A DNA stretch of 63,098 bases, filler included. It is 12 parts of 12 records of this genome, joined end to end, with 100 filler letters (N's around TTAATTAATTAA, not from the genome) between each part and the next. Parts side by side here need not be neighbours in the genome. Positions count along the whole stretch, not along the records: positions 49,284 to 53,151 come from SRR7504441_8799; 11 more parts are not named here. One strand, 5' to 3'. Made by a program: the position numbers and the translations under genes. Positions 219 through 58,283 of the stretch are shown here, piece by piece. How positions within the stretch are numbered: the first letter of the stretch is position 1; every line of letters begins with the position of its first letter. The notes beneath the pieces were generated by a model, which had not been told where the DNA came from, did no database searches, and worked only from the letters and a program-made list of their open reading frames with translations.

Positions 219-1905
219 TCACTTTGACCGAGTAGGAAAGATCCGTCCATGTGCAGTGAACGGGATGAAAGTCGGAAGCCGAACACCTTCGACCTCCTCC
301 ATAGTGCTCGCGTTGAGCACGTGCATATAAGACACCTTTTCCTCACCATGCAGCGCAGCAAAAAAGACCCAACCATCCTCCTCGCGCTCACCAGCCCCCA
401 GAAAAGCAGGCTCGGAGGGGAACACATTGTTCCGATGCCATTTCCTCACCGTGCCTTCGCAAAGATCATATCTCACGATCGCCTGGCTGCCCATCTCCAG
501 GCCGTTGTGCCATTGTTCATTAGCATAGAAGATACAGTATTCAAGCCCATTTCTAGCGGGATTGATGACTGGAAATTCGGTGTACTGCGGGGCATGTGTG
601 ATATTGCGAATGAAATGCTGGCCTCGAAGAGGGCCTGCCATGTGCAAAACTACTCGGTAGACTTGTGCACGTGCGGTGCTTGAGTCACGGGCGGTCTTAT
701 TGCGACGATTGGCCAGGTCCTGGAGCGGGTCGGCGAACGGCAGATCTGGGTAGCTGCAGACGTCAAAGGTGATGGCGGTGGCGTTTTCGAATGTATTGAC
801 AATGTGGACGCTCCAGAGGGGTTTGTCAAGGTAGAAGAAGGTCGTACTTGAGCCATCGAGAGGCACCACCGCAATGCTTGATGCTAGAGGGTCCGAGGTG
901 AAAGGCTTGATGGCTTGGGACATGGTTCCCTTGTGCAGATCTCTCAGTCCTAGCGCCATGCTCACTGGCTGGAACACCAGCACCGCGTGCTTCTTGGTCA
1001 GTCCAAAGGCGTGAGTGTATGGCACATAGCCAGCAGGCAGTGCAATCGCCTGGAAGCTCGTGCGCTGGTGAGGGTTTGCCGCGCTGATCTTATAAAAGTG
1101 CAACTTGCCAGTACCAGCCACCGCAGGACTGGCTGTAGCAATCCCAATGAAAGTGTTCGGATCGTCGATCAATGGAACAGTGTGGGCTGCCCCCATCGCC
1201 AGCATCTGACCTGAGCATATTTACTTCAACCCGTGTATGGAAGCAGTTGGGCTCACCTAGGGGGACGTTGATGTCATCTTTATCCCAGACCCACTTTTGC
1301 ACCTGGTTGGAAGCAGATCCAGGCTGGTACTCAAGCACAACTGCGCTGTCTGTAGTGAGAAAGAATCGATCGCCGATGTTGACGGCCAGCACGTAGTCGT
1401 TATCGTTGGTTGCGCTCGGGTGGCAGAGTGGCTTCAAGAGCGGGCATTTGGGCCTTGGCGGCCTGGTGTCCTCGAACAGCAAGCCTGGCGCCACTACACC
1501 CGATGCCACTGACTGGTTGAACCAGCCGCTGCTCATCATCTCACCCGAGAGGCACACTTTCCTGTCCAGAAACGAGAACTTATACAACTGCACACACAGC
1601 GATCGGCGGTGAGCCCCGGGGCTGCGGACCTTCCCGAAGCCGTCTAGAAGCATGGAAAAATTGTAACCATTGAAGTCGAACATGCCCACCCCTTGGAGCA
1701 AATACTCGCCACGCATCGAGGCCGGGAGGTCCGGGCTATCGATGCACAGAGCGAAGGGGTCGGGGTTGCTGGTGAAGAGCAGCTCGTAGCCGATATCTGT
1801 CGGCACCGGGGTGTGCTGATGTGGTCCGTCAGCCGCTGGCCAGCCGCCGAGCACCGGCGCCGCGGTCAAGAGGGCAACAGCGGCAGCTAGCGCGGGGAGC
1901 TGCAT
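219..1905 (-). CDS. Carotenoid cleavage oxygenase / RPE65-family protein with signal peptide; introns 1588-1629 and 1211-1256
   Basis: LLDGFGK, FPVIN and FPSEPAF..EEDGWV motifs. Four Fe-ligand His candidates (AAH, YTH, SVH, TAHG). GT-AG introns join ORFs 1090..2121 and 219..1205. Hydrophobic N-terminus MQLPALAAAVALLTAAPVLGG. Confidence 0.88.
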
Positions 1906-7577: not shown

Positions 7578-7677
7578 NNNNNNNNNNNNNNNNNNNNNNN
7601 NNNNNNNNNNNNNNNNNNNNNTTAATTAATTAANNNNNNNNNNNNNNNNNNNNNNNNNNNNNNNNNNNNNNNNNNNN
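7578..7677. other. Artificial contig linker N44-TTAATTAATTAA-N44 (also 17580-17679, 23997-24096, 28845-28944, 32801-32900, 39300-39399, 44531-44630, 49184-49283, 53152-53251, 56566-56665, 59939-60038)
   Basis: Identical 100-nt spacer with stops in all six frames, present 11 times; genes are truncated at it. Confidence 0.98.
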
Positions 7678-49283: not shown

Positions 49284-49965
49284 GGGGGGGGGGGCTGGCG
49301 GGGGAGCATGCTTCAACGGATGGCCAAGGGAAGCCTCCAGCTCTGCCGAGGCGGGTGCGACCCCGCCACCCGGAAGCAACTGTGCAAGACACCAACCGTC
49401 CTCCCGCTCCCCGCGGGGCCCCGGGCGCTCGTTGGGGTCAAGTCGCGGCTCATGTCGGTGGGCTGTCCGTTAATGTCCGTTGGATCACCTGCTGACGGCA
49501 GGCCACTGGGAGCAGCCCCTACCAAGAGCAGCTGGAGGTGCGGGTGGGCAACGGCGGCCGCTGGTGCGACCGCGAGCAACAGCCGGGTGGGTCCGTTGGT
49601 GTCCGTTGGCTGACTCCCGTCCAGGCTGGGTGGGTCACGGCTTCTTGCCCCGCCGCGACTGGATCGGGCGAGTCACGCCGGCGTCTAGCATGTGCGCTCC
49701 GGTGCACGAGCACACAAGGCCTATAGTCTACCATAAGGCGTGTGGGGCGCCCCCGCAAGTGGCTTTCACCTCCACCCCACCTCGCCGGCCGGGCTCGGCC
49801 CCGGTGAGTCGGGCGGTGCTGCGGGAGCGCCAGCTGCTGGCCGAGTCGGGGCCTGTCGAGATCGAGCCTGATCCGCAGTCGCAGTCGTCCCAGTTTAGCT
49901 GGGCGCGGCTCGATTACTTCAGAGGCTGGGCTGACGTGGATAGCGTGGATAAATACTTGCACTGA
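49284..49965 (+). CDS. 3' part of a hypothetical protein; two introns with CCGTT repeats (49442-49501, 49587-49624)
   Basis: Splicing gives one frame ending WARLDYFRGWADVDSVDKYLH*. Confidence 0.4.
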
Positions 49966-50108
49966 CGCGTATATGTACCCCCGCCGCTACATGCATACTA
50001 GACATAATCAATTCGTCAGTACTCCTGACCACAGTACTAGTACTCGGCGTCAGTGCTGACTCTATTTTGGTCCGCGGTGAGCCATAACGGCAAAGGAGGC
50101 GCAGCGGA

Positions 50109-52897
50109 ATGCCTGCGGGCTGGCACACGTACAGCTGGGGCTCGGTGTCCAACGGCACCCTAGGGTACGACGACCTGCCGTTATCGACCCCGGAGCCTGA
50201 CCGGCGCCAGCCTCACCCGCGCGAGGTGCCCGGGCTGCGCGGCACCGCCATCACGCTCATTACTTCCTCTGAGCACTTTTCGCTGGCCGCCTCCAGCGAC
50301 GGCGCCCTGTACTCATGGGGCTATGCCGACTTTGGGCGGCTGGGGCACGGGAATATGCCGTTACCGGTCGAGGGCGAGTCGCCTGCCGGGCCGTACTTGC
50401 TCGCCCCGGACGGAATCTCGCCCTGGATCCCATCCCCGAAGAGGGTGATGGCGCTGGCCGGCCAGGCTGTGATATCCATCTCCTGCGGGCTCGAGCACGC
50501 CCTGGCGGCCACCCGGGAGGGCCGGCTCTACTCGTGGGGCGGAGCTATTTACGGGCGGCTCGGGCACCAGGATGGCGTGATAGATCAGCTGCCGATTGAC
50601 GAGGAGGGCGGCTCGTGCGTAACGGACGGCCCAACGGAGAGCGAGCGGAGGGCAGGTACTTGCCGACCCCGCGGGTGGTGGACGCGCTGCTGGGTAAGGC
50701 GGTGGTTGCGGTTGCCTGTGGCGAGGTTCATTCGCTGGCAATCGCTGAAGGTGCCGCCGGAATATTATTATTACTGATTACTGTTTATCAATGAGGGCTC
50801 ACCGGGTGGGGGCAGGGAAAGTATACTGCTGGGGCTGCGCGTCGTACGGCCGGCTCGGACTGCCGACCGACCGACTGATCACGCTGCCACGTGACGAGGA
50901 CGACGAGCAGGTGGTTGCCTAATTAGGCAGGTGTGACGTCCCGCAGTTTGCGCCTACGCCGATGGAGATTCCGTCGCTAACGGATATAATGCACATAGGG
51001 TCAGGGATTCTGCACTCTCTGGCGGTGTGCAAAGCCGGCAAGGTATCTGCGCGCGGCTGTCGGCGGTGTGCAAACCCGGCCAGGTATTTGCGTGGGGCTG
51101 TGCTTCGTTTGGGTGTCTGGGACTCGGAGGTGAGCCCATAGCACACATGGAGAAATATGAGGACGACGAGGTCCCAACGGCATTTAACGGCATTCTAACG
51201 GACGTGTGGGGGGCAGAGTGGGCCGTACCAGCCGACGCCGATGCAGGTGACGGCGCTCGAAGGCGAGTTTGTGGTCGCGGTCGAGTGTGACGAGGTGTTG
51301 CCTAATAAGGAAGCTGTGACGTCCCGCAGGTCCACTCATTGGCACTCACTAAGCAAGGAGCGGTATTCGCATGGGGATGGTGCACCCCCCGGCCAGCCCC
51401 CTCTGAGCCAGCCGCAGCGCTAGCTACGGGAGACTTGGTCTTTCCCAAACAGCTGACTGTAGCGGCCTCGCGAGCTCGGAACTAGGAAGCTTCGAACCGG
51501 CGCCGCGACGGGTGCCGGGCCTAACGGACATCCAGGCGGCTTCACTGGCCGGTTGGTGGGTGACGGCTGGTCTAGGCAATTGTGTGTGGGCGGGCGCACT
51601 CGCTGGCGCTGACTAGAAGCGGGTCTGTGTACGCTTGGGGGTCTGCGGATCACGGGAGGCTTGGCATCGAGTCCCAACTGTATTCTAACGGCATTTTAAC
51701 GGTAATGTGGCAGGTCGAGCCCACCGGACGAGCCGGAGGCATCGCTCCAGCCTAGCCCGGCCCTGGTCTCCTGCCTGGACGGTGAGGGCTTGTTTTATAA
51801 ATATATTCCGTTATAGAGTTGGTTGGTAGGTGGTGTGGTGACGGTGATCGGGTGTGGGTACCGGCAGTCATTTGCAGTGCAGAGAGTCGGGTGGGTCGGG
51901 TGGCTGCGGCCGCTGAGCAGGTGGCAGCTCGGAACTGGAGACGCATCTCGGCGGGTTGATTAATGCACCAGAGTTTGCGGATGTGGCGTTTGTTTTCGAG
52001 GGCGGGTCCAAGGTGCTCGCACATAGGTGCATCTTGGCCGCTCGGGCACAATACTTTGCCAAGGTGAGCACATGCTGTAATTGTTATGTATAGTACTCGT
52101 TATATGCTGCTAGTATCCGAGCTTGGCGGTTGGTGTAGTGTTTCAGCTCGTAGCACTGTGCTGCTGCCAGTAGTATATGGTACTAGCATTTGGGGGCGCA
52201 GTGTTTCAGCTCGGCGATGCTCGAAGGGAGCAGCACAGGCCCGGTGATCGAGCTTCAGATTGCCGTTAAATGCCGTTAGGTGCTCGAGCTTCAGATCGCG
52301 GAGGCGGCTGAGACGGATATGCGAAGGCTGCTTCACTGGCTGTACACGGGGGAGGTGGCACCAGGACAGGGTCGGAGCGATGATGAGAGTGACAGGTGAG
52401 CCTAAGTGAGGAGCCGGAGGCGGCGACGGAGCAAGCGCTGAGCCTACTCCGTCTGGCGGACAGGTCACACCTTCTCGATTAGGAGATGGCATAGCTTAAC
52501 ACCTTCCTGATTAGGGAATGAGCTGTGACCGGTCGCAGGTTTGTGATTGTGCAGCTCAAGCACCAGCTCACGCCGCTGCTCACCGGCCAGCTGAGCGTAA
52601 CCAACGTCCTCACCGTCCTGCAGGTGCCCCAGCCGCATCCCAACCGCCATCCAACGCGTGTGTACACAGGCCGCCGACCATTTCAACGCTGCCCAGTGCC
52701 GCCGGGCTGCCATCGACTTCATTCTGGTCCATTTTCAACAAGTCAAGAAAGCCACCCAGTGCTTCGTCCAGCTGGCCCGATCCCCCGAATGCGCGCACTT
52801 GCTCTCGGAAATATTCCGGCCGTTAGAGTCGCCGCTCCAGAGCCGGGCGGCCGCGCACGACCAGGCGGCGCTCAGTGTGCCGCCTGGGCACGTATAG
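50109..52897 (+). CDS. RCC1-repeat + BTB/POZ(-BACK) protein, about 15 introns
   Basis: Repeats LYSWGYADFGRLG, ISCGLEHALA, ACGEVHSLA, VFAWGCASFGCLG; BTB LAHRCILAARAQYF..FSSAMLE..LLHWLYTG..LLRLADRF. Confidence 0.88.
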
Positions 52898-53484
52898 CCC
52901 GGCTGGTTGCTGTCCGAGAGGTTTCACAGATAAATGCGCAGCTAAATTATAGTAAGCGACTCGTAAGCGACTCGTGCGATCCAAACAAAGCATGAATGGG
53001 GCTCGGGTTGCGCTTCCATTCTAGCTACACTCGTCTGTACGGTACCTGATTTATTAGTCGAATTTCATATTAATTAAGCACTTACACACGGATGTATACC
53101 ATCGCTAGCAAGTGAGTAGGCATGTTTATTGAGTCTTCATGTCTACCCGACNNNNNNNNNNNNNNNNNNNNNNNNNNNNNNNNNNNNNNNNNNNNTTAAT
53201 TAATTAANNNNNNNNNNNNNNNNNNNNNNNNNNNNNNNNNNNNNNNNNNNNCCATTTTCCGGACCAGACCGTATGCTGACGACCAGACCGGGACCAGACC
53301 GAGCCCACCCGCGGCCGACGGAGGGCTCGGCAGGGCCGGGGCGCGGCTGGGCTGGTGCCGGATGGGCCGCCGCACCACCCCTAGCCAGCTCCACCTCCCC
53401 GGAACCCACGTTCCGCCGCCTTCTCCATCTCCGCTTGAGAGCACCGCCATCGTCGCTTTCTCAACCCCGCTTATTTTTACTTTG

Positions 53485-56859: not shown

Positions 56860-58283
56860 ATGGCAATGCGCTGCTCAGGGTTGTACTTGACCTTCGCGCT
56901 CTGCTGGGCAGGATGCGCGGCTCAGCTGGTGGTTGTGGCCCTGGGACCGTACGGTGGGGTGCTGGGCGGCAGCACGACTGGCTTTCTGCTCGCCACCCAG
57001 AGGGTGCCTAGCTTCGTTGCGCTGGATGCTGGCACCTTGGTGACCGGGGTGATGGCCATGCTTGGCCGTTACCAGGAATGCCCACAGAGCTGGTTTCCTG
57101 CCGGGCCCGCCGCAGCGGCTGATAGGGCGCTGGCACTGGTCACCAGCAGGCTGGAGGGCGCCGTGCTTACCCACGCCCACTTGGACCACACAGCGGGGCT
57201 GGTCATGGCGTCACCCGAGCTGCGTGGCAAGCGGGTGGTCGGGAGCAACGCCACACTCAGCGCAGTCCAGAAGAACCTGTTCAACAACGAGGTGTGGCCA
57301 GATCTGGCTTTCCCCTCTCCGACGGCCATCCTGCCCGCCTCACTGGCCGCAGTGCTGTACGAGCAATTCACGCTGGGTGGCGGCAACAGCTCCAGGTTCG
57401 GCCAGGCCGGGCTATCTGTGCTGTTCGGATGGCCGGTCTCGCATACCGAAGCCACTGCCGCGTATCTGGTCGGGACGGGGCTAGACGGCCAGACTATTCT
57501 GTTCTTTGGTGAGTGCCCTGCCGAGCCTGCGTGAGGCGGGCAACAGGTGACAACGGGCCGGGCGGGACGCTGGGCGGGGGCTCGGAGGAGGCCTGGCTGG
57601 CTCAGATGGGCACCGTGTTTGAGGAGACGTGCAGTGCACTCGCGGCTGCAGGGGGGACGCTTGTTGCTGTGTTTCTTGAGGTCTCTTACCCCCTTGGTCG
57701 AAGCCCACACTCGCTGTTCGGGCACCTCACGCCGGATCTTGCCACTGCCGGGCTCCGGAGGGCATGCTCAGCCTGCGGTTCAACGCTGGAGAACACGCAC
57801 ATGGTGCTGATCCATCGCAAGCCTGTGTTTGGAAGCACCAGCTCCTTTGATGAGGCTGGGAAGGCTGCAATTGAGCAGGCGATGTCCAAGGGCCAGTCAG
57901 CCGCCGAGTTGATTCTAGAGCAGTTCAAGGCCACGGTGTCAGGGCCCGGCAGACCGACGTGTTTAAATTCGAATTTTGCGGCGGATTATCTCCATGCCCC
58001 TGAACAAGGGCAAATCATGGAACTGTCAGCGGCTCCGGGAGGCGATCTGGCGCCGTGCCCATCGCAGAGCGGCTCATCGCCAGGAGGAGGTTCCGATACT
58101 GAGTACAAAATGGCGGTCGTGCTGCTGAGCTGCTTTTTATTTCTCACGACAATTGTGGCGGTTGTGCTCGGTGTGCAGAACTGGAGGCAACAAAAGAAGA
58201 TGTATCAGCTCATTTCAGATGCAAAGGGCAATGGGATGGACCTTGGGGCTCCCTTACTTGAAGAGAGCTTGATGAGTTCTTGA
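56860..58283 (+). CDS. Class II (metallo-beta-lactamase fold) cyclic-nucleotide phosphodiesterase with signal peptide and C-terminal TM; intron 57509-57546
   Basis: LDAGT, THAHLDH..GLV, LFNNEVWP, FFGD, LFGHLTP, IHRKP; TM MAVVLLSCFLFLTTIVAVVLGV. Confidence 0.85.

Follow-up and report, generated by a model that had tools for sequence, protein, structure and literature searches.

A probable young 36-nt intron formed by a duplicated exon start and an inverted copy of sister-intron sequence

How new spliceosomal introns originate is still argued, and most young introns bear no marks of their origin. Among the described systems that come closest to the case reported here are intron gains in Daphnia, in which a direct repeat of the target flanks the new intron and filler of identifiable origin lies between the two copies. 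In the Rogers model, as presented in the part of a review that deals with it (PMC3443670), introns derive from tandem genomic duplication across AGGT. Introners of Micromonas, Aureococcus, Symbiodinium and Polarella are associated with duplications of 3-9 bp, according to the section of PMC9860276 on these elements, and in the introner-like layout the donor comes from the 5' end of the target duplication and the insert terminates in the acceptor (bioRxiv 10.1101/2020.10.14.339549 and PMC9860276, in their passages on splice-site use). Here, we describe intron 13 of an RCC1-BTB gene on contig SRR7504441_8799 (the focal contig; positions 49284-53151, 3868 nt, 61.6% GC), which belongs to a 63-kb stretch of DNA, called the window below, that we analyzed together with public protein collections. 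This 36-nt intron consists of a duplicated stretch of exon followed by a short insert matching, in inverted orientation, other introns of the same gene, and it probably arose in a single event at the DNA level.

A preliminary description of the locus had reported that the 36-nt intron starts with a near copy of the next exon. Recomputation gave the same result, the first 17 nt of intron 13 (52244-52260) being identical to the start of exon 14 (52280-52296) at 16/17 positions. We observed that the repeat extends further, to 19/21 positions (Table 1), and that its start-to-start spacing of 36 nt equals the length of the intron. Direct repeats of at least 19/21 at spacings of 20-150 nt were found at 2 places in the focal contig, and 1 of 300 first-order Markov resamples contained any; a chance origin of the repeat is unlikely. 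One of the two mismatches between the copies falls on donor position +4, with A in the intron copy and C in the exon copy. An A at this position was also seen in the introns starting with GTGAG (introns 10, 12 and X1), GTGA-type sites being few. Later selection for splicing behind this A is thus no more than possible. In the consensus, G and not A is the majority base at +4.

What remains of the intron beyond the duplicate measures 15-19 nt and holds about 1.9 copies of a 10-nt unit. Comparison of this insert with the remainder of the contig bore out the claim that the filler is the reverse complement of a unit found in neighboring introns. Positions 52257-52277 matched the reverse complement of the intron 5 core (51196-51176) at 20/21 positions (E 3.5e-4, the third-best match in the self-comparison of the contig), and positions 52259-52279 matched that of intron 9 (51706-51685) at 20/22. 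The intron 5 core lies 1.07 kb upstream of intron 13. The best score of intron 13 against the rest of the contig was reached by 0/200 shuffles. Moreover, a 19-mer of the insert occurred with at most 3 mismatches at 2 places in the window, none of them outside the focal contig, compared to 0/100 shuffles that gave 2. When inverted, the CTAAC box of the source becomes GTTAG, which is the acceptor of intron 13. In the inverted alignment with intron 5, short imperfect matches, read by eye, run on past the insert on both sides, which fits microhomology-guided switching. Since a plain 36-bp tandem duplicate of the target would not end in AG, the insert is essential for exact excision.

Introns 5 and 13, which belong to the same pre-mRNA, contain complementary stretches (51176-51196 and 52257-52277). 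The duplex is predicted at -35.6 kcal/mol, compared to -17.1 +/- 3.7 kcal/mol with a minimum of -29.7 kcal/mol for 500 shuffles. It is a possibility that the 20/21 complementarity pairs in the pre-mRNA and affects the splicing of exons 6-13.

The gene was recognized by Pfam matches to RCC1 repeats and two BTB domain halves in reading-frame pieces on the + strand of the focal contig. A word-indexed protein search with exon 1 returned two full-length RCC1-BTB proteins, P0001 (626 aa, 74% identity over exon 1, from a 2181-nt contig) and P0002 (618 aa, 46% identity over exon 1, from a 1870-nt contig). Each of these two contigs exceeds its coding sequence only slightly, and both are for this reason taken to be transcripts, in the case of P0001 from a metatranscriptome; they come from other species. 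The gene model was built by tblastn of P0001 against the focal contig, with enumeration of splice options where needed. Its 660-aa product was identical to P0001 at 427/619 positions, colinear save for a few short gaps and without any insertion at the intron 13 site, and to P0002 at 289/618. This open frame requires the removal of all 16 introns, whose lengths are, in order, 41, 65, 36, 41, 46, 35, 38, 40, 43, 48, 37, 138, 36, 41, 75 and 46 nt; 13 of the 16 thus measure 35-48 nt, the exceptions being those of 65, 75 and 138 nt. Intron 8 apparently has GC-AG termini and the remaining 15 have GT-AG. A metagenome scan with P0001 gave 15 loci, the best with 34% identity, and no genomic ortholog.

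Intron 13 resembles its neighbors in these respects. It has the termini of a U2-type GT-AG intron and a length in the range of the host, and its removal leaves an open frame colinear with both orthologs, in agreement with the earlier statement that splicing would restore a normal BTB reading. Its donor context is G/GTG and its acceptor TAG/G (a slash marks the splice site), the latter as in introns 8 and 10. The pair 52244/52279 is the only GT/GC-AG pair of typical length that keeps the frame open and restores the orthologous reading; others give introns of at most 33 nt or add or delete residues. Downstream, 151 codons are open and conserved. The preliminary description had also noted that the filler supplies the acceptor AG and that the unspliced intron contains an in-frame TAG, and both were recovered: the 12th and last codon of the intron (52277-52279) is an in-frame TAG, whose AG serves as the acceptor and at which the unspliced reading ends. 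All five introns with lengths divisible by three, intron 13 included, hold an in-frame stop. In genomes with tiny introns, such stops allow surveillance to clear unspliced RNA.

Three other introns of the model showed peculiarities. Intron 8 (51536-51575, 40 nt) is apparently GC-AG, and no GT donor yields the orthologous reading. Intron 9 offers two GT donors, both in frame and separated by 9 nt, at 51671 and 51680, the upstream one making its whole length homologous to intron 5. Intron 14 (52355-52395, 41 nt) is open throughout in the frame of the exon, with a stop 1 nt past its end. An 11-nt "intron" or frameshift at 52396-52406 was considered at this place and rejected, the 41-nt intron fitting P0001 in length.

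The unit of which the insert is made recurs in the focal contig in tandem, with a period of 10-11 nt. It was found in 6/18 introns, three per orientation: AACGG lies on the sense strand in introns 1, 5 and 9, and CCGTT in intron 13 and in introns U1 and U2 of the gene upstream, so that the orientation of the filler also occurs in two introns that the preliminary description had not covered. Out of 23 AACGG/CCGTT pentamers, 14 fall in the 888 intronic nt of the contig, and codons that recur in the RCC1 repeats account for some of the exonic ones. Pentamer density was 5.95 per kb in the focal contig versus 0.63-2.83 in the other 11 contigs of the window, and 7/8 paired unit hits of the window lie in the focal contig. 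The pentamers are often paired one helical turn apart. The sequence YAACGG presumably resembles Myb-type and plant M-phase-specific activator sites.

We then compared the boundaries of 17 introns (intron 14 was left out) by taking, for each, the best ungapped repeat that spans the 5' and 3' boundaries at a spacing within 8 nt of the intron length; the null of this test is inflated, since random placements can land on the two real repeats. Boundary-spanning repeats were strong in 2/17 introns, namely introns 4 and 13 with scores of 25 and 15, while U2 reached 9 and the rest at most 7. The other five introns bearing the unit (introns 1, 5, 9, U1 and U2) showed no significant boundary repeat in this test. 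The earlier proposal of staggered-break repair or insertion of an element is supported as regards the duplication and the short insert; the duplication may be a target-site duplication made by an element or a scar of repair or replication, and the five sister introns speak against the element. The 9-nt low-complexity repeat of U2 was tried as a target duplication and rejected, because the ancestral frame that it implies conflicts with the reading conserved in P0148-P0150, homologs of the upstream gene.

Other introns of the contig bear scars of a related kind. In intron 4, which lacks the AACGG unit and lies 1.2 kb from intron 13, 40 nt align at a spacing of 41, in line with the AGGT tandem-duplication model (Table 1). 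Intron 12 contains a 19-nt repeat (52132-52150 versus 52195-52213), also without the unit, that duplicates the acceptor together with the start of exon 13; if the upstream acceptor copy were used, translation would stop early. A search of the contig for a template of the 44-nt filler in intron 12 found none (score 10-11 versus a null of 10.5 +/- 1.2). In addition, three pairs of introns resemble each other over their entire lengths while their flanking exons do not: introns 3 and 6 (50911-50946 and 51295-51329; 30/33), introns 5 and 9 (28/32), and U1 and U2 (17/19). Judged by their sequences, these pairs represent copies made within the gene or in the neighboring gene, and flanking duplications are absent. 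With introns 5 and 9, intron 13 has only the core in common, in inverted orientation, so it is no whole-intron copy. Overall, 8/18 introns have a match in the contig that was reached by 0/200 shuffles; introns 16 (p ~0.015) and 12 (p ~0.04) were marginal, and the other 8 were not significant. The first 13 nt of intron 16 (52624-52636) are an exact inverted copy of an RCC1-repeat exon motif (50336-50348), which may be a templated piece or a chance match.

Searches beyond the focal contig gave no further cases. Convincing copies of the introns of the 3/6 type were not found in the other contigs of the window. Short-range direct repeats across the window formed 21 families; among the 20 listed, none outside the focal contig was placed at an intron, mostly as judged from the listing. 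One of the repeats (37286/37345), looked at individually, was judged to be coding. A second intron combining this filler with a duplication was not found within the 63-kb window.

Taken together, these observations make it probable, in our view with modest confidence, that 52244-52279 represents a genuine spliceosomal intron, young in evolutionary terms, of a microbial eukaryote with a GC-rich genome and that it arose in a single event at the DNA level, by repair of a break or a stalled fork with template switching, rather than through a transposase or reverse splicing. We prefer a repair or replication event because the duplication is long, the 15-21-nt insert lacks inverted termini, the sister copies lack duplications, and the same gene contains duplication-born structures free of the unit. 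In such an event, some 17-21 bp at the present start of exon 14 would have been duplicated. The 3' end would have left the exon, used an intron-5-type template on the opposite strand to synthesize about 20 nt, and re-entered 17-21 nt behind its point of departure, yielding duplication and templated filler together. The 15-21 bp between the copies would thereby be synthesized from an ectopic member of the intron 5/intron 9 family, as its reverse complement. The upstream copy would then have supplied the donor G/GTG and the inverted CTAAC box the GTTAG acceptor, with the TAG halting translation of unspliced RNA. Templated insertions are a signature of DNA polymerase theta (Pol theta), and we infer that Pol theta or a related pathway might have been the agent. 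PMC8469720, in its relevant part, concerns deletion by microhomology joining and not a birth of the intron 13 kind.

Several points weigh against this reading. The splicing of 52244-52279 is predicted from sequence. Its splice-site scores, 3.8 and 3.6 bits, are near the minimum for the gene, the other introns scoring 2.7-10.1 and 3.5-11.2 bits with a matrix that contains those introns themselves, and by eye no yUnAy branch motif is evident. The middle of the insert fits intron 5 whereas its ends agree better with intron 9, so that a donor cannot be singled out between them; the insert may derive from intron 5, intron 9, their ancestor or an unseen copy elsewhere. A template distance of 1 kb exceeds what is typical for templated insertions. 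The mismatches between the copies do not date the event, as error-prone synthesis during the event itself could cause them. Finally, a small mobile sequence would give the same distribution of the unit over introns and orientations.

This last point leads to the strongest alternative, in which a very short non-autonomous introner-like element made of tandem AACGG decamers inserted in antisense and created a target-site duplication of 15-21 bp. We regard it as possible but clearly the less probable account. The concentration of the unit in introns, its presence in both orientations and its high density in the focal contig are what an element would produce, and the splice layout equals that of dinoflagellate introner-like classes 4/5 and 6/8/10, as these are described in the corresponding part of bioRxiv 10.1101/2020.10.14.339549. 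However, the remaining AACGG introns have no significant boundary duplication, the insert has by eye no terminal inverted repeats, and 17-21 bp lies outside the introner range of 3-9 bp given in that section of PMC9860276. Moreover, the 59 kb of the window outside the focal contig yielded no duplication-bearing copy, the paired unit hardly occurs beyond that contig, and intron 4 is an example of a duplication-born intron without any element.

It is improbable that the 36 bp are no intron at all and represent a recent truncating insertion (a null allele or young pseudogene) or a chimera of assembly or whole-genome amplification. Such an origin would suit the weak splice-site scores, the reading of splicing from sequence and the fragmentary assembly of 12 short, linker-joined contigs, and amplification chimeras often have inverted junctions. 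A random lesion is unlikely to combine exact GT/AG bounds, typical length, phase 0 and an orthologous reading on excision, and it would have to have left the 151 downstream codons intact and conserved. In addition, an in vitro chimera should consist of identical copies, whereas here 2/21 positions differ between the two copies and 1/21 between the insert and its best source. Least credible is a plain 36-bp tandem duplication whose second half was later overwritten by gene conversion from an intron-5-type sequence, or converged on it: the gene does contain a plain tandem duplication in intron 4, and the repeat spacing equals the intron length, but 52264-52278 and 52300-52314 match at only ~1/15 positions (by eye), the duplicate would lack a terminal AG and could not be excised exactly, and conversion would be needed in inverted orientation over ~20 nt.

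A broader proposal can be put forward only tentatively, and we would not rate it as probable: introns in this genome might be born routinely from ordinary duplication or templated-insertion scars of 35-65 bp, without transposase or reverse splicing, the spliceosome removing introns of ~40 nt with minimal signals. The 3.9-kb contig would then display several stages side by side, namely pure tandem duplication (intron 4), duplication combined with inverted templated filler (intron 13), doubling of the acceptor (intron 12) and copying of whole introns (3/6, 5/9 and U1/U2).

Table 1. Positions of the gene, introns, repeats and insert in the window
Feature	Position	Strand	Remarks
Intron U1, upstream gene	49458-49501	+	CCGTT units, same orientation as insert
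Intron U2, upstream gene	49587-49624	+	Look-alike of U1
RCC1-BTB coding region	50109-52897	+	17 exons, 16 introns, 660 aa
41-bp tandem duplication	51021-51101	+	35/40 identical, Tandem Repeats Finder (TRF) score 127; GT of copy 1 and AG of copy 2 delimit intron 4 (51043-51083)
Intron 5	51171-51216	+	46 nt, three AACGG decamers; core 51176-51196 is best insert match, as reverse complement
Intron 9	51671-51713	+	43 nt, whole-length look-alike of intron 5; second-best insert match
Partial duplication within and at end of intron 12 (52064-52201)	52132-52213	+	19-nt repeat, 17/19, spacing 63
Exon 13	52202-52243	+	42 nt
Upstream, now intronic, copy of duplicated exon stretch	52243-52263	+	Supplies GT donor
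Intron 13 (predicted)	52244-52279	+	36 nt, GT-AG, phase 0, in BTB-coding part
Insert	52257-52279	+	Two 10-nt CCGTT units; inverted copy of intron 5/intron 9 core; end is TAG acceptor
Downstream copy, start of exon 14	52279-52299	+	Still coding; 19/21 to upstream copy
Exon 14	52280-52354	+	75 nt, BTB profile positions 54-80

The 12 contigs that make up the window measure 3-10 kb, and each junction between them (at 7578-7677 and ten further places) consists of 44 N, a 12-nt spacer with stops in all frames and another 44 N. The GC content of the contigs ranges from 48% to 65%, and they may be of mixed origin. Upstream of the RCC1-BTB gene, the focal contig begins within a + strand gene (49284-49965) without Pfam hit. 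Three homologs of this gene (P0148-P0150; 48-54% identity, E 8e-13 to 1e-10) were found in a representative library, and their continuous sequence across the junctions identifies U1 and U2 as sense-strand introns. In other contigs, putative GT-AG introns were noticed at junctions of open reading frames, at 57509-57546 (+ strand, 38 nt) in a class-II phosphodiesterase-like gene and at 1211-1256 (- strand, 46 nt) in an RPE65-like gene. Short introns seem to be characteristic of the genome, even though most of the other contigs carry long uninterrupted open reading frames. For a homoserine dehydrogenase encoded on another contig, the best match, at about 50% identity, was to unnamed database entries, with alphaproteobacterial proteins next. 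Many introns of the focal contig are 59-79% GC; the short, AT-rich "BOC1" introns of Mamiellophyceae (<43% GC, in the part of PMC3879977 that describes them) were for this reason dropped as a match. No Rfam family matched anywhere in the focal contig. Two further tandem repeats were seen, an exact 11-nt repeat of 2.2 copies (52952-52975) in the 3' flank of the RCC1-BTB gene and an exact 9-nt repeat (51886-51903) that overlaps the donor of intron 11.

What makes intron 13 valuable is that both of its ingredients can be read, the copy of the target and an insert with a likely source 1 kb away, and that an inverted branch-site-like box of that source becomes the acceptor. It is also notable for having its probable filler source in the same gene and a tandem-duplication intron so close by. 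Introns 4 and 13 together suggest that genomes with very short introns can absorb common small duplication errors as introns. If this were true genome-wide, it would provide a transposon-independent route to high intron density.

Intron 13 can be set against each of the systems named at the outset. As in the Daphnia gains and in break repair with filler, a direct repeat of the target flanks an insert of ectopic origin that can be identified. One Daphnia insert matched mitochondrial rRNA, whereas the filler of intron 13 copies, in inverted orientation, a sister intron of its own gene; here the repeat is also long (17-21 bp), the filler itself gives the acceptor and the whole intron measures only 36 nt. 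With the Rogers AGGT model, intron 13 shares an intron length equal to the duplication period and a donor derived from the duplicated exon stretch. Intron 4 fits this model fully, while in intron 13 only 21/36 nt are duplicate and the acceptor comes from the insert and not from a duplicated AGGT. As in introners, one splice site derives from the duplication (the GT at the start of copy 1) and the other is carried by the insert (the AG at the end of the inverted unit), either orientation works, and look-alike introns are present in the gene. Known introners are of much greater length, in many cases with inverted termini, and are dispersed in hundreds to thousands of copies; the insert described here is 15-21 nt long, lacks inverted termini and has its copies in one 3.9-kb contig of the 63 kb surveyed. 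Instead of a fixed target-site duplication of 3-9 bp across the family, intron 13 has a duplication that is two to five times longer and its sisters show no significant boundary repeat. Intron 13 is thus a variation on known routes of intron gain, joining the break-repair and duplication type to an introner-like use of splice sites, and it represents a clear, though not unprecedented, trace of intron birth.

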